Shown here one piece after another: positions 26,888 through 49,795 of a stretch of DNA of 64,000 nt. Below the pieces are notes generated by a model. That model was not told the origin of the DNA and did not search any database. It saw only the letters and a list, made by a program, of their open reading frames with translations. This DNA is from Thermoplasmatota archaeon (GTDB lineage: Archaea > Thermoplasmatota > Penumbrarchaeia > Penumbrarchaeales > Penumbrarchaeaceae): contig JAFGLL010000005.1 in the NCBI GenBank assembly GCA_016928095.1, forward strand, positions 1,102-65,101. Direction: 5' to 3'. A program made the translations under genes and the position numbers. Position 1 is the first letter of the stretch. Every line of letters begins with the position of its first letter.

Positions 26888-26969
<82 letters not shown>

Positions 26970-27730: not shown

Positions 27731-27731
27731 A

Positions 27732-29189: not shown

Positions 29190-29333
29190 CCACCTTCGAA
29201 CTGCCGGACATGGTTATGATAACGGTTAAGTAGGACTACCTTTTTCCGTTTTCTGCCCCCCCCTGAACGATAGCTATCCCGGTAGATCAAGGGACGATGG
29301 ATATCCGATGGGGTGGACGGAAAGGTGATGGAA

Positions 29334-30983: not shown

Positions 30984-30986
30984 TGT

Positions 30987-33900
30987 TCACTTTTTCGGAG
31001 GTAGGGCCTTCTTACCAGCCTTTTCGCCCTTGAGCTCCTTCCTTCCGGTCTTGCCGTCGGGGATCTGCTTCCTGGGAGTTTCGACGATCTCCGCGTTCTC
31101 CTCCCTCTGCTGCTTGTCCATCCGGTAATAGGCATACCCCATGGCGGCGATTATCAGCAGGAGCAGTACAACGAACACGATCATGAGGGCCTGTACATTC
31201 GACCCGTTCTCATCGTCAGCATCACTATCCGGGCCGACATGGATATCTTTCGGATCGACTACCTGGATGGTCAGAGGCTGGGTATAGGAACTGATCCCGT
31301 CCAGCGAGGTGATGGTGATGTTCAGTGAGTACATTCCCACCTTGGCATCCTTTGCGGCATCGACGTGGAACGTCGTGTTGACGGAGGAGCCCGGTGCCAC
31401 CTCTATCTGGTTCGCGCCCGTCGTGATCTCCATATCCGATCTCAGCAACGCATCTCCATCCACCCTGATCTTGATATTGTCGAAGGTGAACCCGTGGTTG
31501 GAGACCGTCATATTGATGGTCACACCGCTGTCCTGATAGACGACCACAAGCATCCTCTGGAGCTTCAGGACCGGATTGTAAACACCGACGGACATGGAGA
31601 AATGCGATATCGGAGCGAAATCCTTTCCGTCAGAGGAGAGCAGATCGATATAGTACACCCCCTCCTGAAGGGGGGAGAGGATCGGATATCTGGTATCGGT
31701 CAGGACGGATATCCATGGAAGGACATCCGACCCTCCGTAGTATCTTCCTATTCTGATGAAATAATAGACCTTGTCGCCATCAGGGTCCTCTGCCGGCGTC
31801 CAGCTGATCACCGGAGTTCTATCACTGGTCGCCTTCGGCTCGAAGTCCACCACCGGATCGGGCGGGTAATTGGCATCGGTGGATATGATCAGGGTCGAAT
31901 TGGCCGCCGGACCTTTCAAACCATTCGATTCAGGTACGACCTCCACAAGATAGAGGTGACCCGGAACGAATAGCTGGTCGATCTCGGGGTCCCAGTAGGT
32001 GTTCCCGGGAGTTATCTCCTCATCCGTTGCAATGTAGATGAACGAAGACTGGTCGTACACGGATATCCTGTAGGTCACGAGATCACCATCCGGATCGAAC
32101 GAAGGGGACCAGGTGATATGCGGCCTTACGGACCCTGAGACCTTTGGTTGGATGGAGGAAACCTTAGACGGCGGGCGATCTCCCGCTTCTTCCTGGTCCT
32201 CCCGGACCACGATCTGTATGTTGGCGGACAGCCCCGAGTTGCCAAGGAGGTCCCTGGCCCTGACCCGGACGAAATTATAAAAACCGAACGAGAGGGACAG
32301 GTTGAAGCGGATCTCGACCGCATCCTCCACAACCTCATAGCTCCCCTTTATGCTGGACAGGTTCTGCCATGGAAGGAACTTATCTACACCGTCAACTGAA
32401 TAGGAGACATCTATGTTCTCCGGATCGACCCCTATTCCACCATCAGTGATGCTGGCCGTGAAGGACACGACAGTCTCGTTGAAAACGGCCCCCGACCTGG
32501 GTGATGTCATGAGAACGGATGGACCGGTCGCATCCACCCAAACCTTGTAGGTCTCGCTGATGGAGTACTCCTCGTCCTCCCCCCCGTTCCCCAGCATGTC
32601 CTTTGCCCTGAACCTGATCAGGTTATTCATTCCCTCGAGGAATGTGACATTGACATCGTAGAGAACGGTCAGGTTGTCTATTATGTTGACGTCACCCTTC
32701 CTCTGCCATCGGTCCCATTCGCCCTTCTCCTCCTGAAAGGTCTGATAGAATACGGACCATGGATCGACCCCGGAGATATCATCCTTGATCAACAGCTGGA
32801 ACCTTACTATGTTCCGGTCGATCCATTCGTTCTCCTCCGGTTCCCAGAGCTCGAAGGTCGGACCGTTCTGATCGATCTTCGGAAGGTTCATCACGGGGGT
32901 GGTCACCAAGGTCCTGTTCCCGGAAGCGGCCCTTGCCTCGAAGAAGAAGTAGAGGTCAAGCTCTCTTTCAACATCAAGCGAGAGCAGATATGTCTCACCG
33001 TTGCGGTAATCGAAATCCGGGGCCGGGCTTTTTCGCATTGTCATGGGGAAAGGGGAACCGGGGTACGGGAACAGAGACCCGCCCATGGTCCGGTAGGAGA
33101 TGTTCACCTTGGGGAAGCCCAGATCGGGAGGATCGTTCTCGACATCGTAGTAAGTGACCTTGAAATGGAAGGTATCGTCCACGACACCCATCACCGGGTC
33201 CACTGACCCTTCCTCTAGCCTGGGTCCAGAACCGGCTTCCCCGGACTGTGTGGTCCTGGTGAAGAATATATCCGTCTGTCCCTCCCTCCGATTATCTCTC
33301 CAGACGAAATATCCCAATCCTCCATCCTCCACTGCAACTGCCGGATCGTCCTGTACAGTTCCCTGGACCGGCTCGTTCACAGTATAGGTTCGATCGAATG
33401 TTCCATTGGAGAATATCCTTGTCATCATGATATCGGACTTGAAATCAGAGATACCGGGTGATGACGTCCACGCTATGGTGATGTTACCCCCTGTGTCCAT
33501 GGCGATCCTGGGCTCCATCTGATAACCGGAGGTCTCGTTGGGGTGCACGCATCGGTCCAGAGTGAACGTCATACCTAGGTCCATGGATGATGCCATGTAG
33601 ATATCGGCAGAGGTTGATCTGGGGTCCCTCCACACTATGTGAACAACATCCTGGTCCGCTACGATATCGGGCTCGCCCTGGTCCGATCCGGTCGGGTCCC
33701 TGCTGATCCTGATGGACGGATCGAAGGTATCGCCCCCATCCAGCGAGGTGGCCATGTAGATGTCATCGTCCCAGACCCTGTCGTCCACCCAGGTAACATG
33801 AACGCGGTCGCTCTCGGGAAAGCTCACCCTGGGGACAGTGCATTTGTAGATCGTTGTCACGTCGGAGATCTTTACAGCTCCCTCGAAACCGGAACCTCTA

Positions 33901-34487
33901 TCGATCGATCCGTAGATCTGAGGATATCCTGGCCGGTCCCTGGTGTCCTCCCAGACCACTGCCAGCTCATCATAAGGCGAGACATCGATGTCGGGGAAGG
34001 ACTGGGTTCCGGAAAAATGGTCGTTCACCTTGGTGTTGGTCGAATAACTGGACCCGTGATCCTCGGAGCGAGCATAGAATATCATCGACCTGCCTTCGCG
34101 GTCGTCGCTCCATACCACATGGACCGTTCCGTCCGAAGCCACTACCGCATGTGGATACATCTGGCTTGTGAGATCGTCCGTCAAGGTCGCTGTCTTCATA
34201 GTATCGTCCACCCTGACCTCCTGACCAAAGGTCAGACCGCCATCATGCGATGCTCTCGAAAATACATCCCAGTTACCATCCCTCCGGTCCTGCCAGAATA
34301 TGTACACATCATTGCCATCCGCCACGATGTCCGGTGAACTCTGGGACTCGGTGCCAAGGTCCTTGTTGATGATCCGGTCGCTTTCGAAAGCTATGGAACC
34401 CCCGGCATCGTCAACATTGAACAGCATCAAGGTCGTGCACACCAGCATCAAGATGACCAGTGCGCTCCATGCTCTCACGTTGTTCAT
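30987..34487 (-). CDS. Large surface protein with BNR/Asp-box beta-propeller (sialidase-like fold) and FN3-like domains, C-terminal TM with basic cytoplasmic tail
   Basis: ATG at 34487 preceded by GGAGGTGG. Signal peptide WSALVILMLVCTTLML. Asp-boxes SHDGGLTF, SEDHGSSY, SLDGGDTF, SSMDLGMTF. C-terminal TM ALMIVFVVLLLLIIAAMGYAYY plus K-rich tail. The start overlaps the upstream gene's stop (ATGA). Confidence 0.7.
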   Translation of the reverse strand: MNNVRAWSALVILMLVCTTLMLFNVDDAGGSIAFESDRIINKDLGTESQSSPDIVADGNDVYIFWQDRRDGNWDVFSRASHDGGLTFGQEVRVDDTMKTATLTDDLTSQMYPHAVVASDGTVHVVWSDDREGRSMIFYARSEDHGSSYSTNTKVNDHFSGTQSFPDIDVSPYDELAVVWEDTRDRPGYPQIYGSIDRGSGFEGAVKISDVTTIYKCTVPRVSFPESDRVHVTWVDDRVWDDDIYMATSLDGGDTFDPSIRISRDPTGSDQGEPDIVADQDVVHIVWRDPRSTSADIYMASSMDLGMTFTLDRCVHPNETSGYQMEPRIAMDTGGNITIAWTSSPGISDFKSDIMMTRIFSNGTFDRTYTVNEPVQGTVQDDPAVAVEDGGLGYFVWRDNRREGQTDIFFTRTTQSGEAGSGPRLEEGSVDPVMGVVDDTFHFKVTYYDVENDPPDLGFPKVNISYRTMGGSLFPYPGSPFPMTMRKSPAPDFDYRNGETYLLSLDVERELDLYFFFEARAASGNRTLVTTPVMNLPKIDQNGPTFELWEPEENEWIDRNIVRFQLLIKDDISGVDPWSVFYQTFQEEKGEWDRWQRKGDVNIIDNLTVLYDVNVTFLEGMNNLIRFRAKDMLGNGGEDEEYSISETYKVWVDATGPSVLMTSPRSGAVFNETVVSFTASITDGGIGVDPENIDVSYSVDGVDKFLPWQNLSSIKGSYEVVEDAVEIRFNLSLSFGFYNFVRVRARDLLGNSGLSANIQIVVREDQEEAGDRPPSKVSSIQPKVSGSVRPHITWSPSFDPDGDLVTYRISVYDQSSFIYIATDEEITPGNTYWDPEIDQLFVPGHLYLVEVVPESNGLKGPAANSTLIISTDANYPPDPVVDFEPKATSDRTPVISWTPAEDPDGDKVYYFIRIGRYYGGSDVLPWISVLTDTRYPILSPLQEGVYYIDLLSSDGKDFAPISHFSMSVGVYNPVLKLQRMLVVVYQDSGVTINMTVSNHGFTFDNIKIRVDGDALLRSDMEITTGANQIEVAPGSSVNTTFHVDAAKDAKVGMYSLNITITSLDGISSYTQPLTIQVVDPKDIHVGPDSDADDENGSNVQALMIVFVVLLLLIIAAMGYAYYRMDKQQREENAEIVETPRKQIPDGKTGRKELKGEKAGKKALPPKK

Positions 34488-37400
34488 TGCCCCACCTCCC
34501 ATTCATCCTCATCATCCGGATCTTCCTCCTCCATCTCCAGGTCCTCGAGGTCCTCCTCATCGTAGAGGTCAAGGTCCTCCTCATCCACCTCTTCCTCTTC
34601 CTCGTCCTCCTCCTCGTCCGATACCGGAATTTCCTCTGCCTCATCGTTCACATCCTCTTCCGTTAGTTCCTCCGGTTCCTCCTCCAGGTCCTGGTCGGTA
34701 TCTTCCACCAGTCCCTCCTCACCAGGTTTTAAAAGGAGCTCTTTCCTTTTCCGTCCTCTCTTCTTTTTACCTGCCTTTTCCATCTTTACCTTGTCCTCGG
34801 CTGTGAAAACGGAACCGCATTTCATGCAGTACTCGTCCGTTAGCCTGACATCGTTTCCGCAGTAAGGGCATACCGGAACAAAGTGGTCAGGTTCGTAAAC
34901 AGCATCCACCAGAGGTTGATCGGGCTCGCGTGGAGATCCCGATCTGCTCCTTTTTATCAGCAGATAGACCAGCAGCCCACCTATGATGAGGCCGATGAGG
35001 AGAGAGACCAGCAGGAGCGGGAACCAGTCACAGAACCTGTCCCATATCGAACCTTTGTTCCCGCCATCTCCCGATGACTCCTCATCCTGCACAACAACAC
35101 TTAGGAGGTACCTTTCGGATTCAACCACATTCTTTCCGTCGGAGACCACCAGCCATATCCTGTGTACACCGGGAGTGTTCAATGTTGCATTGAGGACCCT
35201 TCCGCTGCCCAGGCTGTCCTGCAATGGATAGAACTCGAGGTCGGAATACCAGACATAAGTGAGTTCCAGTCCTTCCGGATCGTATGAGACCGACCCATCA
35301 AGGACAATGGTATCACCCTGCTTGATGGTGTCCACGGCCGGGTAGATCGTGAAGACCGAGATCGGTAGGAGGTCCCTTTCGGTGATCGCAACCTCTATCT
35401 TGACAGGGGCCGAGACCACCCATCCGTTGCCAGCACTGTCTATGACCCGGAACTTTATCTGGTTGAAAGGACCTTCGTCGAAGAGGACCTCGACGGAAGC
35501 TGCGTACGACCCGCCCCCCCGATCCTCCAGATCGTCAACCTTCAGCCACGGGGAATACCCACCAACACCAAATTGGACCCACCCGCTAATCGTCGAATAG
35601 GAGAACTCTACATTGGATGTTTCCAATCCGGACCCCTCCTCCATTATGAAAGCGGTCACCATCACATCTCGGTCCCTGAGCACCGTGGACCCGTTGGGGA
35701 GGAAACCGTTGAATACGGGCATCTCGTCATCTATGTAGATAGAAACGAGATCGCTCTCCACCATATTTCCCGCAATATCGCTCACCATCCACTGGCCGAA
35801 ACCCCAACCACGGTAGGATGGTAGTACATTGACCGAAGGGGAAGCGCTGGCACCGGCTCCGGACATACCCAGATCGGTCCAGGGCAGGGTATAAAGCTCA
35901 TCCCTCGAGCCGATCCGGTAGTTTATGGAATCCAGCAGGAGACCCGATCCGGTATCCTCGATATAACAGCCCAACGAGAAGGATCCCGGACCGACAAGCA
36001 TGCCGTCCTGATCGCCGATATCGATGGTGGGAAGGTTGATGTCCATATTGTAGGAGAATGGAAGAGATATCGAGGTCTGTCCGGCCAGATCGCTCACCTT
36101 CCATTGTATGTAATTCCCGAAACCATTGGCGGAGGGGACCGTCGCATTCAACCGGACTGAACCATCGAAGGTCGTGATCTCCCTGACAGGCATCCAATCC
36201 GATAAGATCCTCACATCCGAGCGGAAGACCCGATACATTGCAGAGGATATGTCGATACCCACACCGTCATCGGAGACCATTATGGAAAAGCCGTTCGTGA
36301 AGTCGTTTATCCATGCGTTATCCCCTGGGAGAGCACCGTAGAACCTGGGATCATTGATATCCAAAAATAAGGTACGGTTCTCGAAAGGACCGATGTTCCC
36401 GGCCCTGTCACAGGCGAAGAACGAGAGGGTATAGGCTCCTCCGGGAAGGAATATCAGATCGCCGGGGACCAGGTAATCCATCTCAGAAATGATGTTCAGA
36501 TCCTGCCCCAAGACCCGCAGGGTGTAGTTCGATATACCGGAACCTCCCTGGTCCGAAACCTCGGTCCAGTAGACCTCTATGAACTGATCATCATCCACGT
36601 CCGAGATGCCGGATTCCTTCCCGTCGGGGAAGATATTGAAAGATGAGACCGGAGGTGGTTTTACCGTATCGACGTTTAGCTTGAAGGTTACATCCTGACT
36701 CCATTCGGCCCCCCTGGGAAGCGTCCCGTTCGTCAGCCTGTATGTCAGGTCCCTTCCATATAACCCCCCACCAGGAACGGCTGTGATATTGTCCAGGAAG
36801 GACCCGTTCATAACTGCCTTACCGATGGTGATACCATCGGGGCGTTTCAGGGATATCTCCACTCTCGTGGCGTTGGGACCGAACGGTACTCCGGATGTCC
36901 CGTGGACCAGTGAGACATTGCAGACATTGAATTCCGAATCCTCCTTCATCCAGCCTTTGACGGGGGATCCTTCGGGGTCAAGTACCTTGAGATATGAGCT
37001 GTCCAGCCCGATCTCCCTATCGACAACGAACTCGTCGTTGAGGTAATTGGAGTGCGATCCGACCGTGCCACTGGTCGAGGTCACTATCAGGTCGGGGTCC
37101 GGAAGGTCCCAGCCGACCTTGACCATGAACACAACGAACCAAGATTGGACCCCATCGGTCCTGCCAGTACTCAGTGAAGGATATAACATGAGCTGGTCCT
37201 CGAAGTCCCCGGTGGCGATGATGGAGAATTCTTTGGTAGATGTGTCGAAGCTGAGCTCGGCGAAACCTGCAGCATCCTGGCTCATCATCTGGACATTTAC
37301 TGTGTCAATATGTTCGTAACCTACCTGGGAGCGTGCCGCTACCTTGAACTGATAAGGACCCTCCCCGGGTGCCAGGATATCCCTTGGTCTATCGAGTGGG

Positions 37401-40400
37401 CCGGCTATCTCCACAGCGCCTGAGATCTCAAGGGGTTGGGTCCTTACCGATAGGCTGAACAGGTCCTTCCCCTCCCAAAGATATACCACGCCAGGGCTGC
37501 TGCCGTCCAGCAAGGGATCGGCACCCGGAGCTCCGATGAACAGGTCATACTTGCCATCACCCGTGATGTCCTTCCCCGCAAGGGCGGACCCTGCCTCATC
37601 ATTGTCCATGAAGCCGGAGATCAGCGGCAGGGAGGAAGTATTGATGGTCAAAGAGGAGGTCAGTAAAGAATGTGGGAACACATGGACACAACCCGTGACG
37701 AGACCGCTTATCGGGTCCTGAAACCCCTTGGCCCCTATGAACACGTCCAGATCTCCATTCCCGTCAATATCCCCCAGGTCCACCGAGGATCCGGTCCTCT
37801 GATTGACCTGATCACCGCATACCGACACATTGAACTCTGTCCTCAGGGAGATCGTTCCCGAGGGCATCCTTGATGCAAGGAACTCCCCCTGAAGTATGAA
37901 TAGGTTCCCTCCTTCCTTGACGGTTCTCTGAAATCCATCTCCCGATGGGCTTCCCAGGAAGAGTTCGGCCTTCCCATCATCATCCATATCCCTGGCCACA
38001 AGAGATGATCCCACCTCATCATAGGGCCAGGCTCCGAATATACGAAGGCTCGGTTCTGTTACAAGATCGATATCCTGGTTCCAGGTACTCCTGCCCCGCA
38101 GGACATAGGTCACTCCCTGTCTGGTGATGGACCCGGCCTTCGACTTGGGTGCCCCTATCGCCAGGTCACCGATCCCGTCCCCATCCATGTCATCGATGGC
38201 CAGGGTCTCCCCGATGAACTCTGTATCCTCCGTTCCGATGATCTTGACATCATAGATATTGCGGACGCTCCTACTTGTCGTTCCGGAGAGGGGTCCGAAC
38301 ATGATATAGACCATTCCGGCATGGTACCTGTCAGCGGTCTCGGCTCCGTGATCGTAGGGAGCGCCGAATGCCAGGTCGTCGATCCCGTCACCGTTCAGGT
38401 CTCCCACTGCAATTGCGGACCCGATCCGTTCGACAAGGTAGCCGGTATAGGTCAGGTTGGTTCTGGTCATCATGTAGGACCTCGTGCCCCCCCAGAAGAT
38501 GTGGACACTTCCAGCGTCGTTGTACAGCCCGCTGATCTGTGCGGAGGGCGCACCGACCACAAGATCGGGATAGCCATCATTGTTGAGGTCTCCTGTTGCC
38601 ATTGCCCAGCCGAAACGGGAAAAGCTCATGGCATCATTGTAGCGAATATCAGTAGAATCCGCTGCGTAATATCTGCCGCTCCAACCAGCTGGCTCACCGA
38701 AGAACATATGCGCGTATCCTGTCCGACCCGGGTCACCTCCGAGATAATCCCCCACTACCAGGTCATCGTTCCCATCCTGGTCGAAGTCCTCCACTACCAT
38801 CGCGGACCCGAAGCAGGAGGCATTGAACTGACCGACGAACGATGCATCGAAAGAACTTGATTGAGATAGGAAGCTTACAAGGCCGGTCCCCACCGTGGGG
38901 CCCAGATCGACGACCTCTTTGGGGGAGGATATCAGGACCTCCTCCTGACCGTCGATCAGCATCTCCGATGCGGCCATGCTCTGGAAAGCACCGCATTCCC
39001 TTGACCTGCCCTTGTATGCTTTTATGGAGTCTTGGAATGTGAGGACGGAAGGGAACGATCCATCAATGTCGAACAGATAGGCCTCTCCGCAGTCGAACTC
39101 AAGGTTGTCCACACCGTCACCTCCCGGTGCGGCTACAAGCAGTTCGTCGTAACCATCACCGTCAATATCCGCCCCGAGGGTCGTCTTCCCCCAAAGATCG
39201 GATGAATCCACTCCGTACGATGTTGTACTGGCATCCGAACGCCCCAGCTGAATGTCGGTTGTGACATTGCGTCCGATGTGGATATCGAACTGTCCGGCCT
39301 TCTTCCTCCAGGTTTCCACACCAGGTGCATAGGGAAGGCCGATCACGAGATCGTCCTCATCCCCGCCCCCAAGGTCCGCGAACGTCAGGGAAGCCTCCTC
39401 CCAACCACCGGATCGGAGGCTGAACTGAACATCTGGATAGAAATCTGTTCCCTGGTGGACCTGGATGTCGGTTCCCAGAGGGACCCCCGGATATGTGTAA
39501 CCCCCGAGCATGATGACGGCATAACCCTCCCCATTGAACCTGTAGCTGAACGAGAGATCGCCAATGGAATCTCCATTGAAATCCCCCACTGCCAGGCCAT
39601 TCCCTATATGAGTGGCATATGCATCGGCGGTCACGACGGCTTCTCCGAAATATCTTACCATGGGTCTGGAAAAGGAAAGATCGACCGTACCAATGCCCGT
39701 TCCAACCCCTTTGATCACCTCGATCTCCCAGGAGCCAAAGCATTCGTTATCATATTCGGATTCGACCGGATCAGCTTTCCCACCGTGCCCCTCGCTCCGT
39801 ATTACCAATTCAGGTACACCATCGTCGTCGAGGTCGCCCGCCTCGAGAGCAGTACCCAGCCGGTCGCCACCTTCCCTGCCGTATACATGACAGAAAAGCC
39901 CCACCCTGTCGATCTGCATCGAAGTACCAAAGGAGACCCGCTGCCTGCCCGTTATCACATAAACCTCTCCCGAGTCCCTCCGGCCGTTCAGGGGACCATC
40001 TGCAAAGGGAGCTCCGATCATCAGATCGTCCCTTCCGTCCAGGTTGAGGTCCTCAACGAGAAGGGAGCTTCCGAACCAATCATCGACATCACCCGCTGTA
40101 ATGACAAGGTCAGCATCGTAGTGCCCGATCAATGTGAAAAGTTCATCCGGTTCACGAGCAAAATATACCATAACCGCACCTCCACCCGCACCAAGTCTTG
40201 ACATCGGGGCCCCGATCACGATGTCACCCCTTCCGTCTCCGTCGAGGTCGCCGGATGCGACCGTTGAACCGAAGGGTACCCCCGATTCTCCCCCCAGTAT
40301 GGACATGGTATCATCCCTGCCAAGGACCACGTATGAATCCTGGTCCAGGGATGCGGGGGTTTCAGACCGTGTTTCGTTCCCCCCGATTACCGTTGGCAGG

Positions 40401-40501
40401 GCTGATGTTATTAGGGTGATCATTATTACAAGAGATGATAGTACGGGACTTCGGGACACGCTCTTCCTCCTCTTGATATTGGTCAGGTGGCATTTGCGCA
40501 T
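34484..40501 (-). CDS. Giant (2005 aa) integrin-alpha-like surface receptor: ~14 FG-GAP repeats (two beta-propellers), Ig-like domains, TM helix, cytoplasmic zinc ribbon and polyacidic tail
   Basis: ATG verified at 40501. FG-GAP/Ca-binding repeats such as GDLDGDGRGDIVIGAP, EDLNLDGRDDLMIGAPF, GDLNNDGYPDLVVGAPS, DDMDGDGIGDLAIGAPKS. TM LLLVSLLIGLIIGGLLVYLLI. Cytoplasmic CPYCGNDVRLTDEYCMKCG followed by ~75 residues that are mostly D/E. Confidence 0.75.
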   Translation of the reverse strand: MRKCHLTNIKRRKSVSRSPVLSSLVIMITLITSALPTVIGGNETRSETPASLDQDSYVVLGRDDTMSILGGESGVPFGSTVASGDLDGDGRGDIVIGAPMSRLGAGGGAVMVYFAREPDELFTLIGHYDADLVITAGDVDDWFGSSLLVEDLNLDGRDDLMIGAPFADGPLNGRRDSGEVYVITGRQRVSFGTSMQIDRVGLFCHVYGREGGDRLGTALEAGDLDDDGVPELVIRSEGHGGKADPVESEYDNECFGSWEIEVIKGVGTGIGTVDLSFSRPMVRYFGEAVVTADAYATHIGNGLAVGDFNGDSIGDLSFSYRFNGEGYAVIMLGGYTYPGVPLGTDIQVHQGTDFYPDVQFSLRSGGWEEASLTFADLGGGDEDDLVIGLPYAPGVETWRKKAGQFDIHIGRNVTTDIQLGRSDASTTSYGVDSSDLWGKTTLGADIDGDGYDELLVAAPGGDGVDNLEFDCGEAYLFDIDGSFPSVLTFQDSIKAYKGRSRECGAFQSMAASEMLIDGQEEVLISSPKEVVDLGPTVGTGLVSFLSQSSSFDASFVGQFNASCFGSAMVVEDFDQDGNDDLVVGDYLGGDPGRTGYAHMFFGEPAGWSGRYYAADSTDIRYNDAMSFSRFGWAMATGDLNNDGYPDLVVGAPSAQISGLYNDAGSVHIFWGGTRSYMMTRTNLTYTGYLVERIGSAIAVGDLNGDGIDDLAFGAPYDHGAETADRYHAGMVYIMFGPLSGTTSRSVRNIYDVKIIGTEDTEFIGETLAIDDMDGDGIGDLAIGAPKSKAGSITRQGVTYVLRGRSTWNQDIDLVTEPSLRIFGAWPYDEVGSSLVARDMDDDGKAELFLGSPSGDGFQRTVKEGGNLFILQGEFLASRMPSGTISLRTEFNVSVCGDQVNQRTGSSVDLGDIDGNGDLDVFIGAKGFQDPISGLVTGCVHVFPHSLLTSSLTINTSSLPLISGFMDNDEAGSALAGKDITGDGKYDLFIGAPGADPLLDGSSPGVVYLWEGKDLFSLSVRTQPLEISGAVEIAGPLDRPRDILAPGEGPYQFKVAARSQVGYEHIDTVNVQMMSQDAAGFAELSFDTSTKEFSIIATGDFEDQLMLYPSLSTGRTDGVQSWFVVFMVKVGWDLPDPDLIVTSTSGTVGSHSNYLNDEFVVDREIGLDSSYLKVLDPEGSPVKGWMKEDSEFNVCNVSLVHGTSGVPFGPNATRVEISLKRPDGITIGKAVMNGSFLDNITAVPGGGLYGRDLTYRLTNGTLPRGAEWSQDVTFKLNVDTVKPPPVSSFNIFPDGKESGISDVDDDQFIEVYWTEVSDQGGSGISNYTLRVLGQDLNIISEMDYLVPGDLIFLPGGAYTLSFFACDRAGNIGPFENRTLFLDINDPRFYGALPGDNAWINDFTNGFSIMVSDDGVGIDISSAMYRVFRSDVRILSDWMPVREITTFDGSVRLNATVPSANGFGNYIQWKVSDLAGQTSISLPFSYNMDINLPTIDIGDQDGMLVGPGSFSLGCYIEDTGSGLLLDSINYRIGSRDELYTLPWTDLGMSGAGASASPSVNVLPSYRGWGFGQWMVSDIAGNMVESDLVSIYIDDEMPVFNGFLPNGSTVLRDRDVMVTAFIMEEGSGLETSNVEFSYSTISGWVQFGVGGYSPWLKVDDLEDRGGGSYAASVEVLFDEGPFNQIKFRVIDSAGNGWVVSAPVKIEVAITERDLLPISVFTIYPAVDTIKQGDTIVLDGSVSYDPEGLELTYVWYSDLEFYPLQDSLGSGRVLNATLNTPGVHRIWLVVSDGKNVVESERYLLSVVVQDEESSGDGGNKGSIWDRFCDWFPLLLVSLLIGLIIGGLLVYLLIKRSRSGSPREPDQPLVDAVYEPDHFVPVCPYCGNDVRLTDEYCMKCGSVFTAEDKVKMEKAGKKKRGRKRKELLLKPGEEGLVEDTDQDLEEEPEELTEEDVNDEAEEIPVSDEEEDEEEEEVDEEDLDLYDEEDLEDLEMEEEDPDDEDEWEVGQ
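34492..34499 (-). promoter_or_regulatory. Shine-Dalgarno GGAGGTGG, 4 nt upstream of the ATG at 34487
   Basis: Placement favours the internal Met as the true start. The same motif recurs before the ATGs at 42546, 24506 and 27732. Confidence 0.5.
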
Positions 40502-40522
40502 GAACTACGATGCCGTCGCCCA

Positions 40523-40533
40523 GATATCTTTAG
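40523..40533 (-). promoter_or_regulatory. TATA-like TAAAGATAT about 22-32 nt upstream of the 2005-aa integrin-like gene ATG (40501)
   Basis: A further TTATAAAAAG at 40555-40565 could serve the divergent DUF2085 gene. Confidence 0.35.
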
Positions 40534-40653
40534 CCCGATTTCAACAATTACAGATTATAAAAAGATTGTGGGGCAGATATGTATTGGCAGAGCGAGGCCA
40601 GAGGTGCCTATCCATAAAGATTTATCTCCTATGGACACCTCTGCATACCGAAA

Positions 40654-41061
40654 ATGAACGAAAATGACAGCGTTCTCAGGTCGAAAATGACCGTTAATGA
40701 CCTCGGTGGTCCGATCGTGGATGACAGGTGTAGATCTCTTAGGATCGCCTGCCACGGTGACCCTGACCGATGTTTCTGGCTAAGAGGGAGACCTTTACCT
40801 CTCTGTTCGCGATGCACGACATTCTACCCCTCTATACTGATCGGTCTGGTCCTGGGGATCCCCCTTGTCATCACTCTGGAGATCTCTGCATTGATCGTCC
40901 TCATATCATTCATCCTGCTCCAGCTCCCGCTTGTTATCGACGGCTTCACGCAGTACAATGGTTGGAGGAGGTCCAACAATGTATTGAGAGCGGTCACCGG
41001 TGTCCTCTCAGGGTTCGGTATCGGTGGTGGAATAACCTACATGATGACAACGATCTTCTGA
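40654..41061 (+). CDS. DUF2085-family membrane protein
   Basis: CFWLRGRPLPLCSRCTTFY matches the DUF2085 signature. Three predicted TM helices. An alternative ATG at 40687 is possible. Confidence 0.6.
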   Translation: MNENDSVLRSKMTVNDLGGPIVDDRCRSLRIACHGDPDRCFWLRGRPLPLCSRCTTFYPSILIGLVLGIPLVITLEISALIVLISFILLQLPLVIDGFTQYNGWRRSNNVLRAVTGVLSGFGIGGGITYMMTTIF

Positions 41062-41062
41062 T

Positions 41063-41463
41063 TCAGTAGAAGCTCTTGCACTTCGGGCAGAACCAGGATT
41101 CCACCCTCTCTTTATAGACCATTCCGGTCCCGCAGACCGGGCAGGATTCACCTTTCTTCTTCTTACCGTCCTGGTCCATGAACATCCTATCGTATGCCGG
41201 CTCTTTCTGTACCCCTGCCTCATCGGGGCCTTTGAAATCAAAATCATCACTGGAGTGGGACGCGATCTTCTGCCCGGCCCCGCATTCGGAACATCTTCCG
41301 GATCCCTTCGAGACCTTCGCGCCGCAGTTCCAGCATTTTATCTTGGAGGCTTTTTTTACAGGTCGTTGAGGTTCGATCTCATCCTCTTCTTCATAAGAGG
41401 ACGAGCGCTTCTTCTTTTTTTTCTTGTGAGGGGGTTCCTCTTCGACCGCTAGAGAGGCTTTAC
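41063..41463 (-). pseudogene. Out-of-frame (+1) continuation of the poly-Glu zinc-ribbon gene, encoding two further zinc ribbons; probable frameshift at an A10 homopolymer
   Basis: Frame is open from 41463 with no ATG before KIKCWNCGAKVSKGSGRCSECG...CPVCGTGMVYKERVESWFCPKCKSFY*. It opens with EEEPPHKKKKKKR, continuing the repeat style of the upstream ORF. A stop lies just upstream in this frame. Confidence 0.45.
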
Positions 41464-42546
41464 CTACCTTCTTTTTTTTTTCCTCTTGGGAATATCTATC
41501 TCCTCATCCTCTTCATGATGAGCCGGATGCTTCTTCTTCATCTTGCGGGGAGGTTCTTCTTCATCATCGTCATAATTGGTCGGACGCTTCTTCTTCTTCA
41601 TCTTGCGGGGAGGTTCTTCTTCTTCCTCTTCCTCCTCGGGTTCTTCCCTCAGAACACCTTTACGACCGCAATCATCGCATATGAATTTCAATGGTCTCCT
41701 TCTGGACCTTATCTTGATGATATTTCCGCATTTACACCGGATCTTGAGGACTTCTTCCTCCTCGTCTTCTTCCTCCTCTTCGTCCTCTTCCTCTTCCTCC
41801 TCTTCCTCTTCTTCCTCTTCGTCCTCTTCCTCTTCCTCCTCCTCGTCCTCTTCCTCTTCCTCCTCCTCGTCCTCTTCCTCCTCCTCGTCCTCTTCTTCCT
41901 CCTCGTCCTCTTCCTCTTCTTCCTCCTCGTCCTCTTCCTCTTCCTCCTCCTCGTCCTCTTCCTCTTCTTCCTCCTCGTCCTCTTCCTCTTCCTCCTCCTC
42001 GTCCTCTTCCTCTTCTTCCTCCTCTTCTTCCTCTTCGTATCGATCTCTGGACTTCTTCTTTCCAGTTCCCACTACGAAGATCTCCTCCTCATCATCCTCG
42101 AGGCTTATAGGACGGTAGCTGGACCTTACAGCTCCCTCATCTCCATCGCTGGTGATGTCAAAGCCTCTCTTTTTTACTGGCTTCTTCCCCTTCTCCTCAC
42201 CTTTTGGTTTCTTTTTTGAGACAGTGGTCTCTTCTTCCAGAACCACCTTCTTCTTGAGAGGCTTGCCCTCGTCCTTGTGCTTCTTTTTAAGAGGCTTTTC
42301 CCCGTCAGTATGCTTCTTCTTGAGAGGCTTGCCTTCGTCAGCATGCTTCTTCTTCAAAGGCTTGCCCTCGTCCTTGTGCTTCTTTTTAAGAGGCTTCTTC
42401 TCGGGAACCCCGTACTTTTCCTCGTATTTTTTAGCGAACACCCTGGCCTTCTTGGCAAGGTCCCCCTTGGGGACCCAACCACATTCTTGACACCTGTCAA
42501 AGGGATAATCCATTTTAGCCTTGCATTTCTTGCACGGGACCTTCAT
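41464..42546 (-). CDS. Cytoplasmic multi-zinc-ribbon protein with five KPLKKKH(K/A/T)DEG repeats and a ~94-residue poly-Glu/Asp tract
   Basis: ATG at 42546 (MKVPCKKCK) preceded by GAGGTGGG. The track ORF starts at ATG 42573. Zinc ribbons CKKC...CQECG and CKCG...CDDCG. E/D tract encoded at 41758-42039. C-terminal EEEPPRKMKKK repeats. The ORF stops just after an A10 run. Confidence 0.6.
   Translation of the reverse strand: MKVPCKKCKAKMDYPFDRCQECGWVPKGDLAKKARVFAKKYEEKYGVPEKKPLKKKHKDEGKPLKKKHADEGKPLKKKHTDGEKPLKKKHKDEGKPLKKKVVLEEETTVSKKKPKGEEKGKKPVKKRGFDITSDGDEGAVRSSYRPISLEDDEEEIFVVGTGKKKSRDRYEEEEEEEEEEEDEEEEEEEDEEEEEEEDEEEEEEEDEEEEEEEDEEEEEDEEEEEDEEEEEEEDEEEEEEEDEEEEEEEEEEEEDEEEEEDEEEEVLKIRCKCGNIIKIRSRRRPLKFICDDCGRKGVLREEPEEEEEEEEPPRKMKKKKRPTNYDDDEEEPPRKMKKKHPAHHEEDEEIDIPKRKKKRR
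41758..42039 (-). repeat. Imperfect GAG/GAA/GAC trinucleotide array (~94 codons) encoding poly-Glu/Asp
   Basis: The plus strand reads (CTC/TTC/GTC)n with a periodic 7E+D or 5E+D pattern. Visible directly in the sequence at 41.76-42.04 kb. Confidence 0.9.
42250..42399 (-). repeat. Five tandem 33-nt repeats encoding KPLKKKH(K/A/T)DEG
   Basis: The plus strand shows five iterations of gaggcttgccctcgtccttgtgcttctttttaa-like units. Confidence 0.85.
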
Positions 42547-42715
42547 CCATCCCACCTCTTGTATCGATGACATACATCATGCATACAAAATAAAAAGGTT
42601 TCCCACTTTTTCAATGATTCTTCATCACCTATGTATAGGAACCCGCAGATATCATCATTTGCCTCCGATGGAGGCTGACCCGCGGTCTCCACGGAGGGTG
42701 GACGGTCCAAGACTG

Positions 42716-45700
42716 TCAGTCCGCCATCATTTCTCTATCCTCTTCCGAGGCTCCCGCTCCATCAGGGTCAATAAGGTCCTCCGGTCCGGGATGGCTGATC
42801 TCTTCCTCCCTGTGATCCTCCATAGGATGATCGCCGGATGGACCCTCATCCAATGAGCCCTCCTCGATCTCGTCCTCGGGAAGGTCCATTCCGCATTCAG
42901 GGCAGTAGGACATGCTTTCCTCGATGGACGCACTGCAGAAAGGGCACTCCTTACGGGTCATTTTCTCCTGCTCGGACCATGTTGGTCCATCGTTCGTCTT
43001 CTCCGGTTCGGCAGCTTCTTCCGATCCCTGCGTCATATCATCTTTTCTCTTGTGGAACAGGACGACCGCCAAGATCACCGCCCCCAGCAATATGATGATG
43101 ACGACCACTATCAATATAACAAGCCAGAGTCCAGAACTCGTTCCATCCACCTCTGGAACACTTTCAGGATCAAGGGGGTCCGAACCCTTCTCGTATTCCT
43201 CCAGGTTCGTATAACCGTCCACATCCATATCACCCTGGGCATCTGATGCCCATTTCGGGTTCATTCCCCAACCTACTTCTATACCGTCCGGAATGCCGTC
43301 ATCGTCCGTATCGGGATTGTCCGGTTCCGTCCCCAACTGGTATTCCTGGAGGTTTGTCAGTCCGTCCCTGTCCTGGTCTTCGGCCGCATCCGTATTGTCT
43401 GCGGGGGACAGGAAATCGTAGCCGATCTCGTAGATGTCCGGTATGCCGTCACCATCCCCGTCGATATCCTCGACCGAGATGGTCCTGAACGTGATCACGA
43501 GATCATTTGCGGAATTCCCGCTAAGGTCCCTGATGGGTCCAAGGGTGAAGGTATAGTTCGTTCCATCCTGGAGTGAATCCTCAGGGTGATAAGTGATGGT
43601 CCTGGTCTCCACGTTCAGTTCGAAATCAAGTATCACGGAGGAATACCCGCCCTCGGGGACCAAGGATGCCAGAAGAGCATCCCATTCTATGAGCTCGGAG
43701 AACCTTATGGAGATAGAGGGTCCGAGTTCGATGTTGACCGCTCCATCCTCCGGTTCGACCGATATGACACCCGGTGCCTGAGTGTCCGGGATGGCCACGA
43801 TGAGATCATACTCCAGGGTCTCCCAGTTCCCCGCGATATCGTAACCTGTTACCGTCAAAGAATAGGAACCGACATCAAGGTCTATCGATAGGTCCGTTCC
43901 CTGGACCTCTTCATAAGTGTAGTTGTTCGAAATGGTCCAGGTGACATGATCGACCCCGCTCTCATCGGTTATATTCAGCTCAAGGTCGACGTTCTGTCCC
44001 TCGTAGGACATGATCGTCCCTCCGTCGACCCCCTCTATGAACATTTCAGGGTCCTTCAGGTCCACCCATATGTTCGATGAGTTAAATGGACCAGCATTCA
44101 GGGATGGGTCAATGGACCTGAACTGGGCAGTGTGTTTTCCTTCGTTGAGGAAGAAATAGTACTGGAATACACCCCCATAGGTGGTCCATCTCTCTATTAT
44201 CCCTTCGGGGTCCGTGAAATCCTTTCCGTCCAGCTTGATCTCGATCACTGTCCTGTTCTCTCCTGTGACATTGACCTTGAACCCAACGAGAGATGTGTTG
44301 AAGAACAAAGAGCCAGGTATATACTGTACTGCATCCAAGGGGAAGAACTCAAGCCTTGGTGCGACAGGGGGTGTAATATCAAGGGTTGTAAATGCTACGG
44401 TCGAAGATGGAGGGCCGAAGTTCGGGGTCTCGGCATCATCGACCGCAACGATATAGGCTTCTATCTCGGTTTCGGAGGGCAGGCCGGTGATCTTCTCGGT
44501 CACTGACATCCAGTTGTCGATATAGATCGAGAGGTTCCATGAACTATCGACGGCTTCCAAGAATATCCAGAAGCCGATAATATCATCACTTGGACTTGGG
44601 GTCCATTTCAGCTGCACCCAATCCCCTCCGAAACCCTCTACAGTGAAATTCCTGGGAGGTTGGGGTGGAATGATATCGAGGGTCTTTCCAAAGACCGGAC
44701 CGAAGAACCCCAACGTATTTGCATAATAATCCTCTGATCGGATGCTGATATTCCAGAGAGTATCATGCTCCAGGCCATCGATGATGAAACTCCTTGCCTT
44801 GTCCTTGGCATTCACGGACTTGGTCTCGGAAATATGAGCGCCATCTCTCCTGTAATCTATTCTGAACCATTGTAGATCTCCCGGAGGGTTCGGAAGGTCC
44901 CATAGAACTTCTATCGTTGTCCCGGTCCTATTGCCGACGGTCAGGTTTTCCACTTTTGGAGGTGGTGTGAAATCCAGGTACCAGGTCATATTGAAGTTAT
45001 CTCCAATAAAAAGACCCGGATCCTTGAGGTCGTTCCGCCAGTATGCTGCTGACGCGGACCGCTCCCACCTCATTGTGATCTCGACCTTGACAGACGATGT
45101 GGATCCCATATGCTTGTACTGATTGACAGCAATAGGAGGCATTATTCCATCCGATCCGGTCACCAGACCGGTCAATGTGGGATCGAAGACCGTCCATTCA
45201 TCAAGCTCGGTCGGATATTTTTTACCATATACCTTGACCGATACAAGATCCACACCCTTTTGTTCGTAATCATCGATCGCCCTTAAGAAGAACCATTTAC
45301 CCTCGTGCACTTCTGCAGAACTCTGAGCCGTGACGTTTCTTGGAGCGTTGAATGTGCAGTTGACGACCCAGCCATAGCCACCCGTCATACCCCTGAAACC
45401 TGCCGAATTCCCCATGAGGGTCGAATTGTAGACATATGCTCTTGACCCCATGCCCATCGTCTTTACCCCTCCAGCAGACCCCATCATCAGTATATGGTCC
45501 AGGTATCCGTATCCTCCCTGAGTGATGTTGATACCATCGTAAAAGAAGGATGTATGAGATCTATCGAAAATTATTGGAGATGCTTCTGTTCCGGCGGCCA
45601 GAATGGCACCTTCCACCCAGATCCCGACCGACGGAGGGAGTTGGACCGTAACTCCGGGATCGATCCTCAGGGTCCTGCCCACAGGTACTGACACGTTCCC

Positions 45701-45898
45701 CTCGAGCAATACGGGGGAGTCTGCAATTCCCCATCGGGTGTCACCGGTAAGAGGCCCCTCCGGGACCACGATCCCCGACACTATCTCGGGAACCATGAAC
45801 GTGAAGATGAGGGTCAGTGACGATAGAAGCAGTAAGGATATCACTGCCATGGTCGACAAGTTACGAGAACTGGCGGTGTAATTTATATCGAGGCCCAT
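42716..45898 (-). CDS. Large (1060 aa) surface protein with thrombospondin type-3-like Ca-binding repeats, TM helix, cytoplasmic zinc ribbon and acidic tail
   Basis: ATG verified at 45898 with GGAGAG upstream. N-terminal anchor [23 protein letters not shown]3-like DxDxDGxxD repeats ([38 protein letters not shown]). [27 protein letters not shown]. Cytoplasmic [19 protein letters not shown] followed by a D/E-rich tail. Confidence 0.65.
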
Positions 45899-46006
45899 GA
45901 TCGCTACTCTCCTGATATTTCACTCCAACTTGGGTTGTGTGGTAAGGGTGGGATCTTGTAATAAACCTTTACTCTGAGATCAAAAAGAATAACAAAGGTG
46001 CAAACC

Positions 46007-46207
46007 TTATATCAGACTCCAGACCCAACCCTTCTTTGCAGGGTCCATCCGGCTCTTGATGATACCTTTGGTCTTCATGAGCATCAGCGTCCTTACCGCC
46101 CCGTCGGGACAGGCCTCTCCTCTCCTCTTGATCTCCCTCTCAAGCTCCGAGGTGGACATCTCCCCTTGCTCCCTAAGGATCTTCAATATCTTCTCTTCTT
46201 CCGTCAT
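46007..46207 (-). CDS. Small winged-helix DNA-binding protein (putative transcriptional regulator)
   Basis: 66 aa. EEKILKILREQGEMSTSELEREI is HTH-like, followed by a beta-hairpin wing KGIIKSRMDPAKKGWVWSL. ATGA overlap with the upstream SNF transporter gene. Confidence 0.45.
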   Translation of the reverse strand: MTEEEKILKILREQGEMSTSELEREIKRRGEACPDGAVRTLMLMKTKGIIKSRMDPAKKGWVWSLI

Positions 46208-47829
46208 GTACCTACCTCCTGGGTCATGGGTCCCTCACTATCCATCGCTTCCCTGATCTCCAATACCTCGACCAGAGGGCCTTCAAGGATATCTATATCG
46301 TCATCTATGGACCGTCCCATGTCCATTCCCTCATCTATCATCCTCGGTCCCACCCTTTTACTTATGAAGATCAGGACCGCCAGTGATACCCCCCACTGGA
46401 GCAGGAGGATGCCGAGACCTAACACACCTCCCAACCACCACTCCTCCGAAGGAGCGGTCAAGGTCTGGATCAGGAACCAACCGGACATCACCGCGAGCTC
46501 GATGGGTATGATGAACTTGAAAAGGACATCGAACCATCTTCCTACCTTGATATCATCATATCTGCTGTTGATCATATTGTTCCTGAACCGGGTTATCCCG
46601 TACTTCACGACAAGGTAGTATATGAACGCACCAGACACAATAAGACCAAGACCCCATACGAAGTCCTGATTGTCAAGGAACACGGGTAGGGGGGTCCCGC
46701 TTACCGGGAGAATTATCAGAGCCGAGGGAAGGCCCAATATCAACATACCCACTGTGAGAAGGCGGATCGCCTTCTTCCTGTCCCATCCCGCATCGACGAA
46801 GTTCTTCACGGCATTCTCATATGTCGCTATCATTGAGGTCAGCGCTGCAAAGGCCATCGCCATGAAGAAAAACACTGCGATAATGGGGCCTCCCGCCATC
46901 TCGCCGAAAAGGCTTGGGAGATAGATGAACGTAAGGCCTGAACCCCCTTCCTCAACGGCAGCTTCTGCCATTGCAGGTGATGGGCTGACGGCGAAAACCG
47001 TTGCAAATATCATGATCCCCGCAACCAATGCAATGGTGGTATCCCCCAGACCTGTCAGGAAGGTATTGAGGTTCGTGTCGCTCTTCCTCTTCGTATAAGC
47101 CCCATAGGTTATGGCCATGCCCATACCGGCGCTGCAAGACCAGGCCGATTGGGCCAGTGCAGATATCCAGGTCCTTGCATTGAGCAGAGACCCCATATGC
47201 GGCGTGAATAGATATGCGATCCCATCAAACGCTCCCGGGAGGAGAAGCGCCCTGATCATTCCAATTATAAGAAGTACGAAAAGTGCCGGTATGAGGACCT
47301 TGTTCACTCTCTCAACGCCCTTTTCAACACCCCGGTATACGATGATGACGGTTATTGCAATGGCCAACACCTGAAAGAACACGACAAGGAGCGGGGAGCC
47401 GAGGAAACCCTCCCAAGAATCCCTGGCACCCTGTGCGCTGTGGAACGAGACCGATCCGGTGACGGAACCCAATGCATACCGAAGGGTCCAGCCCATCACG
47501 ACAGCGTAGTAGAAACCGATGGCTGTGGATATCCATGTAAGCCAGGCACCCATCCAGGTCTTCTTTATCCCCAGGAACTGTGCGAACGTCCCCATTGTCC
47601 CCCTTCGAGACTTCTTGCCGAGATTGAACTCCACAAGCAGTATCGGTATAGACCAGATGAAGAGAAAGATGACATAGGGGATCATGAAGGACCCGCCTCC
47701 GTTGTTGGCCACCTCCTTGGGGAACCTCCAGATATTACCGGTCCCGATGGCTGCACCAAGTGCGGCCATGAGAAGACCCCACCGGTTCGTGAACAGCCCT
47801 CCGACCTTGGAAGCCGTTTCAATCACCAC
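46204..47829 (-). CDS. Sodium-dependent transporter, SNF/NSS (SLC6) family
   Basis: TM1 signature WGLLMAALGAAIGTGNIWRFP. 11-12 TM helices. GTG start at 47829. Overlaps the M14 peptidase gene by 11 nt and the downstream HTH gene by 4 nt. Confidence 0.85.
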   Translation of the reverse strand: MVIETASKVGGLFTNRWGLLMAALGAAIGTGNIWRFPKEVANNGGGSFMIPYVIFLFIWSIPILLVEFNLGKKSRRGTMGTFAQFLGIKKTWMGAWLTWISTAIGFYYAVVMGWTLRYALGSVTGSVSFHSAQGARDSWEGFLGSPLLVVFFQVLAIAITVIIVYRGVEKGVERVNKVLIPALFVLLIIGMIRALLLPGAFDGIAYLFTPHMGSLLNARTWISALAQSAWSCSAGMGMAITYGAYTKRKSDTNLNTFLTGLGDTTIALVAGIMIFATVFAVSPSPAMAEAAVEEGGSGLTFIYLPSLFGEMAGGPIIAVFFFMAMAFAALTSMIATYENAVKNFVDAGWDRKKAIRLLTVGMLILGLPSALIILPVSGTPLPVFLDNQDFVWGLGLIVSGAFIYYLVVKYGITRFRNNMINSRYDDIKVGRWFDVLFKFIIPIELAVMSGWFLIQTLTAPSEEWWLGGVLGLGILLLQWGVSLAVLIFISKRVGPRMIDEGMDMGRSIDDDIDILEGPLVEVLEIREAMDSEGPMTQEVGT

Positions 47830-49549: not shown

Positions 49550-49572
49550 CGTGCTGGTAAGGTAACCTGGTG

Positions 49573-49578
49573 TTATAT
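49573..49578 (-). promoter_or_regulatory. TATA-like element (ATATAA on the minus strand) 24-29 nt upstream of the M14 carboxypeptidase ATG
   Basis: Only AT-rich hexamer at the appropriate distance on the minus strand. Confidence 0.4.
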
Positions 49579-49768
49579 CGTTTTCTATTCATCCAGAGGA
49601 ACGTTCAGGCATGGCTGGTTACGAGGGGCTACAAGAGGCCTTGGCGTGCCATGTTTCAGCGGGTCACGGGGCCGTCCGATGTTACTTTTAAAAAGGGGGA
49701 TCGGTCTCCACAGGAAATCCCCCCCAACCTTGAAATAATACCAATATGATAGGTCCTTATCCCCGCGG

Positions 49769-49779
49769 ATAAAATAAAT
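49769..49779 (+). promoter_or_regulatory. TATA box ATAAAATAAAT 17-27 nt upstream of the sensor-like gene ATG at 49796
   Basis: Sits in the 246-nt divergent intergenic region. The transcript is probably leaderless. Confidence 0.45.
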
Positions 49780-49795
49780 TCTGGGGTAATTCCGT

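Follow-up and report, generated by a model that had tools for sequence, protein, structure and literature searches.

Homopolymer runs of about 9 nt or more are a known substrate of transcriptional slippage, and the genes described with such a run include Shigella mxiE (T9), Thermus thermophilus dnaX (A9), and the orfAB genes of IS elements (A9/T9) (PMC1088944). Ribosomal −1 frameshifting has been described on A-rich heptamers, namely A_AAA_AAG in E. coli dnaX and A_AAA_AAT in S. solfataricus fucA1 (PMC8211752, PMC5009743), and a site of the form A_AAA_AAR has been predicted for the Mg-chelatase of Methanococcales (PMC5009743). According to a 2021 review, fucA1 is the sole demonstrated −1 frameshift in Archaea, and its site occurs in only two strains (PMC8211752). 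The two reviews mention no case in which slippage by an archaeal RNA polymerase serves gene expression (PMC8211752, PMC5009743). The DNA analyzed here is a stretch of 64,000 nt from a Thermoplasmatota archaeon (GCA_016928095.1, contig JAFGLL010000005.1, positions 1,102 to 65,101 of the forward strand), hereafter called the window. In it, a gene for a multi-zinc-ribbon protein, called the central gene, lies between the genes of two giant surface proteins, and its coding sequence changes frame at a run of ten A. The firmest result of the analysis is that the full protein, with four predicted zinc ribbons (ZnR1 to ZnR4), would need a −1 slip of the reading frame on this run, which is A10 or A11 among related loci. 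The locus as a whole was read, with a probability of about 0.55, as a cluster of cell-surface genes specific to one lineage, an uncultured clade of Thermoplasmatota, in which a recoded polyampholyte is encoded between two ribbon-tailed giants.

The three genes appear as long open reading frames (ORFs) of 2005, 369, and 1060 aa on the minus strand (Table 1), the same-strand placement being as given in the first-pass annotation of this DNA. The 369-aa ORF of the central gene ends at a TAG close behind the A10 run, and its 0 frame at the junction reads ...AAG AGG AAA AAA AAA AGA AGG TAG. Four zinc ribbons had been ascribed to the central protein; the 369-aa ORF holds two of them, and the number is four only if the frame shifts at A10, a break that the first-pass annotation had missed. 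The other two, ZnR3 and ZnR4, were found by a motif scan in a stop-to-stop ORF (41063..41503) that is −1 relative to the 369-aa ORF, and the Zn_Ribbon_1 family of Pfam matched this −1-frame extension with an E value of 4.1e-5. One added A joined the two ORFs into a 503-aa protein with all four ribbons, and the repeat EEEPP[RH]K(M)KKK then ran across the junction. The stop-to-stop ORF has no ATG, GTG, or TTG until 41185, well past its first ribbon. Separate initiation of the −1 ORF, or its reinitiation after termination, was rejected because no start codon precedes the conserved ZnR3. Read-through of the TAG was also rejected, since the 0 frame meets further stops and the conserved ribbons lie in the −1 frame.

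Related loci were collected in several ways. Thermoplasmatota relatives were found with the C-terminal half of the FG-GAP giant (the 2005-aa protein) as the query, and a scan of one genome per GTDB species yielded nine loci, all in metagenome-assembled genomes (MAGs) of Thermoplasmatota/Thermoplasmatales. A metagenome scan with an alignment of the central C-terminal part added two more real loci, and a contig look-up added L013. The junction is carried by nine loci (the window, L002, L003, L004, L006, L008, L009, L010, and L013), obtained in different projects and with different assemblers. Each of the nine has a 0 frame that ends with AAA AAA AAA AG[AG], then zero or one codon, then TAG, and coding continues in the −1 frame. 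The run was A10 in six loci and A11 in three, the extra A standing on the 5′ side and leaving the frame relation unchanged. A tenth contig (P0006), read from gene calls alone, had the same split beside a DUF2085 gene. The −1 ORF of L008 and of L009 does not open until 16–22 nt ahead of the 0-frame stop, which confines the shift to the run.

The run was retained between lineages even though their synonymous divergence (pS, 0.5–0.8) was near saturation. The ratio of non-synonymous to synonymous divergence (pN/pS) of the −1 ORF was 0.10–0.32 within clades, and 0.11–0.51 for the part from the slip site through ZnR3; judging from these values, the −1 ORF is under purifying selection. Moreover, the ribbon cysteines of the −1 ORF were invariant among orthologues, and the first ATG, GTG, or TTG lay downstream of ZnR3 in six of eight loci. 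Elsewhere in the gene, 74% of the Lys codons were AAG (348/471) and no other run exceeded A8, and in each related locus the site was the sole A/T run of at least 10. The 0-frame stop was TAG in 9/9 loci; among 14 genes checked in the window, 13 ended with TGA, one with TAG, and none with TAA. Furthermore, this TAG was formed from −1-frame codons that are rare, namely GTA (13%), CTA (5%), and ATA (34%). An exhaustive HMMER search of 1.84 billion representative proteins, with the 146-aa −1 ORF as the query, returned no in-frame full-length homologue of the central protein; the close homologues of its C-terminal part were all fragments of 50–105 aa.

We infer from this pattern that the frame change is programmed recoding, by which a two-ribbon and a four-ribbon isoform would be made. 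Standard decoding would stop at the TAG and give the two-ribbon protein, and a −1 event at the run would give the four-ribbon protein. The event would set the ratio of the short to the long isoform. As for the mechanism, the insertion of one extra A by RNA polymerase on the homopolymer (transcriptional slippage) is the more probable route, and a −1 slip of the ribosome on A_AAA_AAA/G is a plausible but less probable one. Polymerase slippage was favored because at least 10 A's, not a mere heptamer, are under selection and because no convincing conserved RNA structure accompanies the run; for a slip of the ribosome, seven A's would already suffice. If this is true, it would be the first case shown of a cellular archaeal gene that is expressed through polymerase slippage. 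The site is kept in every sampled lineage of the clade, and slipping of an archaeal RNA polymerase or ribosome on A10–11 can be tested with it. The finding also matters for annotation, in which gene callers split the central gene into fragments.

Soluble and for the most part disordered, the central protein is a polyampholyte organized like beads on a string, in which low-complexity K-rich and E-rich linkers join four small ribbons and one conserved linear motif. As the first-pass annotation stated, no transmembrane (TM) segment was detected in it, five lysine-rich KPLKKK copies are present, and the Glu/Asp (polyE) tract, put at about 94 residues, measured 95. In the alignment of repaired orthologues, the conserved blocks were ZnR1 with a helix-like stretch, the central motif ([RS]GF[DS]I..G[DS]DEGAV[RK]SSYRP[IM]SL[ED]DD[DE]EEIFVVG), ZnR2 (LKIRCKCGN.IKI.S..RPLKF.CD.CGRKG.LREEP), ZnR3, an FDF..P..G stretch, and the C-terminal ZnR4. 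The polyE tract was 17–45 aa in the other loci, compared with 95 aa in the window. AlphaFold2 modeled the C-terminal part as isolated ribbons in disorder, only the ribbons being confident, and the predicted local distance difference test score (pLDDT) of ZnR4 was above 90. In a profile search of the PDB, ZnR4 matched the ribbons of ribosomal eS31/S27ae and eL43 with E values of 0.03–0.9, which are not significant. No Pfam or NCBIfam family beyond zinc ribbons was found for the central protein, and an exact-match look-up of the 369-aa ORF returned no record. Literature searches on this gene or clade found nothing.

At the DNA level, the polyE tract at 41751..42036 and the KPLKKKH repeats at 42247..42396 are tandem repeats with periods of 18/24 and 33 nt, and their copy number differs widely between orthologues; in L009, the scaffold has an N-gap inside the polyE tract. 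In L003 (L003:3..600), the ORF upstream of the slip site opens with another sequence, which is TPR-like (LNPEASRIWYSKGVVLMDSGKF..), in place of the ZnR1/ZnR2 of the other loci; either the domain was swapped or the end of the contig is misassembled.

Both giants have an N-terminal hydrophobic segment and a single C-terminal TM helix, and in both, a C-x2-C-x10-C-x2-CG ribbon lies 26–33 residues past the helix and is followed by an Asp/Glu-rich tail. The net charge of the tail was −46 in the FG-GAP protein and −30 in the TSP3-like protein (the 1060-aa protein). N-glycosylation sequons were found in the ectodomains (16 and 18, respectively) and not in the tails, and this confinement fits a type-I topology with cytoplasmic tails. 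The combination of a TM helix, a cytoplasmic zinc ribbon, and a polyacidic tail, which had been noticed in both receptors, was thus seen again and proved to be kept in their orthologues. These proteins evolve fast, and the tail ribbons rank with their best-conserved parts. The ribbons are of the generic type of Pfam Zn_Ribbon_1 (PF13240), for which the three scores obtained in the cluster (22.6, 18.4, and 23.7 bits) all stayed under the 25-bit gathering score. The pattern C-x2-C-x(~10)-C-x2-C is found in the FG-GAP tail, the TSP3-like tail, ZnR1, and ZnR3, and the two tails showed no specific similarity past this generic cysteine pattern. Ribbon tails are found on only two of the window's roughly 11 type-I surface proteins, namely the two that flank the central gene; the others have short tails without a ribbon.

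The assignment of the 2005-aa protein to the FG-GAP proteins held in the Pfam search (Table 1). A signal/anchor segment spans aa 20–41, the N-terminal half contains the beta-propeller repeats of the FG-GAP type, and Ig-like/PKD-like domains are present as well; orthologues in L001–L009 shared 43–75% identity. Past the TM helix, its tail measures 153 aa and reads IKRSRSGSPRE..CPYCG.., the ribbon being followed by a basic patch and then by the acidic stretch. The same order was found in ten FG-type tails: a TM helix, a linker of 25–30 aa, the ribbon (CP[YH]C[GD]..DEYCMKCG.VF..DK..M), the basic patch, a long acidic stretch whose sequence varies, and an end motif. Within the ribbon, DEYCMKCG was invariant in all ten, including the paralogue in L007 and P0002, and the C-terminal motif [DE]W[EG]V[GDR]x was present in every FG-type tail whose C-terminus was available, again with L007 and P0002. 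On these giant wall-associated archaeal proteins, a cytoplasmic interface is marked by the ribbon tails, which are conserved, and by the W-[EG]-V motif at the terminus. A distant homologue, P0003 (23% identity), has a Pro/Gln-rich tail without a ribbon and belongs to a head-to-tail array of seven giant paralogues of 1270–1406 aa without Pfam hits (L014:1..23975). No central-like gene was found in this array, a single case that is too distant for a test of co-gain.

A tryptophan a few residues from the C-terminus of an acidic cytoplasmic tail was observed in four of about 11 type-I surface proteins of the window. These proteins end in ..DEDEWEVGQ (the FG-GAP protein), ..SEDWVEE (the CARDB protein), ..GKWTEDEG (the C25 peptidase), and ..EEEADWE (62945..63985, minus strand). 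The sub-terminal Trp may be a shared docking or sorting motif, with a rough binomial chance estimate of about 0.02.

For the TSP3-like protein, the length of 1060 aa and four D-x-D-x-DG motifs (aa 811–895) agreed with the description as a TSP3-repeat protein; besides these motifs, the support for the family is an NCBIfam match to throspo3_MtsD (E 1.9e-7) that fell far under its cutoff, and Pfam TSP_3 gave no match at E<=0.01. The protein ends in a 57-aa acidic tail. In L004, L009, and L010, the orthologous proteins have retained a TM helix followed by a ribbon and an acidic tail, and they lack the terminal motif.

The gene order was SNF transporter, TSP3-like, central, DUF2085, FG-GAP, 1171-aa partner, AMP-ligase, and HpaB, and it was identical as far as the contigs extend. 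The order of the three genes was kept in every related locus long enough (complete in L004 and L009; partial in L002, L003, L006, L008, and L010). The first-pass annotation had considered that the three genes might never co-occur elsewhere; in all sufficiently long related loci, they did so in the same order. The three genes are judged to be real, and each of them is under selection. The AMP-ligases shared 82–88% identity and the HpaB proteins 74% among the relatives, the whole neighborhood being collinear, metabolic genes included. Since the whole region is collinear among close relatives, this synteny adds little on functional coupling. The DUF2085 membrane protein reported earlier beside these genes was readily found by Pfam (Table 1), with no match in NCBIfam. 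Its gene is convergent with the central gene, their stop codons lying 1 nt apart, and divergent from the FG-GAP gene, and all related loci of sufficient length, L013 and the P0006 contig among them, have it at this position. The 1171-aa gene overlaps the FG-GAP stop by 19 nt (34484..34502), and the pair was kept in all loci as conserved operon partners.

A sequencing or assembly error at the homopolymer, or a decaying pseudogene, is a very remote explanation of the frame break. Homopolymers are error-prone and one scaffold has a gap in the nearby polyE tract, but the frame relation is the same in nine independent assemblies, at two run lengths, both halves are open and under purifying selection, and the conserved out-of-frame TAG and the AAA codon bias are restricted to this site. 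The central ORF, which the first-pass annotation allowed might prove to be a pseudogene, is not one. Taken together, the conserved frame relation, the purifying selection, and the codon pattern make artefact, pseudogene, separate initiation, and TAG read-through all unlikely. It is also quite improbable, if a little less so than an error, that the run is a DNA-level phase-variation switch, in which slipped-strand mispairing would toggle the gene between truncated and full-length states within populations. All nine loci are in the −1 state and none is in frame, the extra A of the A11 loci is compensated by the upstream context, and the near-identical pair L006/L010 (pS 0.03) has an equal run length in different samples. 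Moreover, the 0-frame TAG is conserved, as expected if the short product matters. What speaks for a switch is that homopolymers of 10–11 nt are mutable, that both run lengths occur, and that the gene stands among surface-protein genes, the usual setting of such switches.

The leading rival reading of the cluster is that the three genes are neighbors by descent only. The recoding would then be real and independent of the receptors, the central polyampholyte would have an unrelated role such as nucleic-acid or ribosome binding, and the tail ribbons would be generic juxtamembrane modules; this has a considerable chance of being right, although well below one half. It agrees with the collinearity of the region, including the AMP-ligase, HpaB, and SNF transporter genes, with the weak likeness of ZnR4 to the ribosomal ribbons, with the occurrence of acidic-linker multi-ribbon proteins and of membrane proteins with cytoplasmic ribbons in unrelated organisms (P0010–P0022), and with receptor tails that have just the generic cysteine pattern in common. 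However, of the window's surface proteins, about 11 in number, the only ribbon-tailed ones flank the central gene, the central family and the DEYCMKC-type tail have one and the same very narrow distribution (nine loci in the GTDB scan and two real loci in the metagenome scan), and the PDB matches of ZnR4 were not significant. A putative sub-membrane scaffold formed by the central ribbons and the ribbon-bearing acidic receptor tails is possible at a slightly lower level, and recoding would decide whether it has a valency of two or of four ribbons. That the central protein is an adaptor of slippage-set valency which docks on both tails and links the surface to the cytoplasm is doubtful; if true, it would be a functional analogue of eukaryotic receptor–adaptor coupling, built from entirely different parts. 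The first-pass annotation proposed an integrin/talin-like outside-in module, in which a ligand signal from the ectodomains would pass through the ribbon tails to the central adaptor. The FG-GAP propeller, Ig-like legs, TM helix, and tail do resemble the layout of integrin alpha, the tails are conserved, and the genes are adjacent. Nevertheless, this proposal is unlikely, and a little more so than the adaptor of slippage-set valency: a beta-subunit-like (vWA/betaI) protein, FERM or rod domains, and a GFFKR-like motif are all missing from the cluster, Pfam and NCBIfam gave no vWA or FERM match in any cluster protein, and no signaling output domain is linked. The winged helix-turn-helix gene named earlier was not found in or adjoining the region, and all partners are polyanionic.

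Several observations weigh against the reading of a recoded protein tied to two ribbon-tailed receptors. The production of isoforms and its mechanism are predictions from the DNA. RNAalifold predicted no pairs (0) downstream of the run, and upstream only a 4-bp stem at −2.8 kcal/mol that comes from E..EPP coding, so no convincing stimulatory structure was obtained. The ribbons are of the generic PF13240 type, which is also found on unrelated membrane and multi-ribbon proteins, and hhalign gave only a 30% probability for the FG-GAP tail ribbon against the central ZnR3. The K-repeats and the polyE tract are free to vary in sequence and length between orthologues. The relatives are all close and collinear, so adjacency is what would connect the central protein with the receptors. 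Furthermore, with a net charge of −61 on the central protein and acidic tails on both receptors, simple charge complementarity is doubtful. The earlier suggestion of matching charge blocks, with acidic tails facing K-rich repeats, is accordingly weaker than claimed: the repaired protein is itself net −61 (the short ORF −67), and its N-terminal 150 residues (+22) are the sole basic part. Clade-specific GAGGAGG..CCTCC stems were also considered as an RNA element and rejected, being explained by E..EPP coding. Slippage on long runs does not require a stimulatory RNA element.

Table 1. Features of the central locus and of the surrounding window (positions are those of the window; aa, amino acids).
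Feature	Position	Strand	Remark
A10 slip site (T10 on the + strand)	41472..41481	-	sole A/T run >=9 in 64 kb
0-frame TAG stop	41464..41466	-	two codons past the run; from −1-frame codons GTA GGT
Central gene, 0-frame ORF, 369 aa (putative short isoform)	41464..42573	-	ZnR1, K repeats, motif, polyE, ZnR2
ZnR1	42478..42534	-	
Five KPLKKK repeats, aa 60-110	42244..42396	-	
Conserved motif RGFDI..EEIFVVG	42067..42168	-	
PolyE tract, 95 aa D/E, aa 180-274	41752..42036	-	
ZnR2	41665..41736	-	followed by EEEPPRKMKKK repeats
−1-frame extension (putative long isoform only)	41063..41481	-	continues EEEPPHKKKKKK repeat; ZnR3 and ZnR4
ZnR3	41279..41335	-	
ZnR4	41078..41143	-	
FG-GAP type-I giant, 2005 aa	34484..40501	-	Pfam FG-GAP E 2.8e-71, 9 stretches
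FG-GAP protein, TM helix	34952..35026	-	
FG-GAP protein, tail zinc ribbon, CPYCGNDVRLTDEYCMKCG	34814..34870	-	Pfam Zn_Ribbon_1 E 8.6e-5, under gathering score
FG-GAP protein, polyacidic end, 76 aa	34487..34714	-	last residues DEWEVGQ
TSP3-like type-I surface protein, 1060 aa	42716..45898	-	Pfam fn3 and Big_5; four D-x-D-x-DG motifs
TSP3-like protein, TM helix	43055..43132	-	
TSP3-like protein, cytoplasmic ribbon, 19 residues	42890..42946	-	
DUF2085 membrane protein	40654..41061	+	Pfam PF09858 E 2.8e-25, 89 bits vs 25-bit gathering cutoff
1171-aa type-I surface protein	30987..34502	-	weak BNR/beta-propeller signal, TM helix, basic tail without ribbon
Big_9/cadherin-like surface protein	1771..4746		
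NosD/beta-helix surface protein	8196..11834	+	
CARDB surface protein	11838..14594	-	
TM-anchored M14 carboxypeptidase	47819..49549		
C25 peptidase	53290..56829	-	
Beta-propeller protein	58652..61906		

The window as a whole (1..64000) is an island of large membrane-anchored surface proteins with housekeeping genes interspersed. In the Rfam and tRNA scans of the window, tRNA-Arg(CCT) at 26888..26965 was the sole match. Homopolymers of G or C were C9 (5529..5537), G8 (11357..11364), and C8 (29256..29263); the C9 and G8 runs fall inside the spans of the long ORFs 4853..5758 (minus strand) and 8196..11834 (plus strand), respectively. The tail-to-tail spacing of the DUF2085 and central genes was 0–6 nt in the three contigs where it could be measured (the window, L013, and the P0006 contig), and the DUF2085 protein has a cysteine-rich N-terminal segment (..CRSLRIACHGDPDRCF..PLCSRC..). 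A second, paralogous pair of the FG-GAP/1171 type was found in the MAG Zod_Metabat.266 (L007:1..4256), where the FG-like protein of the pair still has a ribbon, an acidic tail, and the terminal WEV.

Compared with known surface systems, the FG-GAP protein shares FG-GAP repeats, Ig-like domains, a single TM helix, and a cytoplasmic tail with integrin alpha. However, the integrin alpha tail is short and carries GFFKR, whereas the FG-GAP protein has a zinc ribbon and a long polyacidic stretch in this place; in addition, the locus offers no beta-subunit partner, and the neighboring central protein has no talin- or kindlin-like domains. Proteins of the PF13240/DZR type have the same ribbon, together with low-complexity linkers or a cytoplasmic placement; they include multi-ribbon proteins (P0010–P0016), which are bacterial and have acidic or proline-rich linkers, and membrane proteins (P0020 and P0022). 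In this locus, by contrast, the ribbons are on the C-terminal tails of type-I giants and in a putatively recoded neighbor, and their scores are under the gathering threshold. The TRAP/MIC2 adhesins of apicomplexans are type-I proteins with short acidic tails, in which a sub-terminal tryptophan docks a cytoplasmic connector. The end DEWEVGQ of the FG-GAP protein and the ends ..DWVEE, ..ADWE, and ..KWTEDEG are similar to these tails, a resemblance only, and in another domain of life.

With the slippage genes, the central gene has in common a long A/T homopolymer within the gene, overlapping ORFs, a stop near the run, and a run kept against codon bias. As in Shigella mxiE, the long product would need one non-templated base (PMC1088944). 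It differs from them in being archaeal, in its A10–11 run, in its disordered multi-zinc-ribbon product, and in being known at present from its DNA. With the frameshifts on A-rich heptamers it shares the −1 relation, A_AAA_AAA/G inside the run, and two predicted products per gene, but the run is longer, its full length is under selection, and no convincing conserved stimulatory structure goes with it. Moreover, the fucA1 site occurs in two strains, whereas the site of the central gene is kept across lineages with saturated synonymous sites. The A10–11 site is thus a strong new candidate in a known class of recoding that is scarce in archaea.

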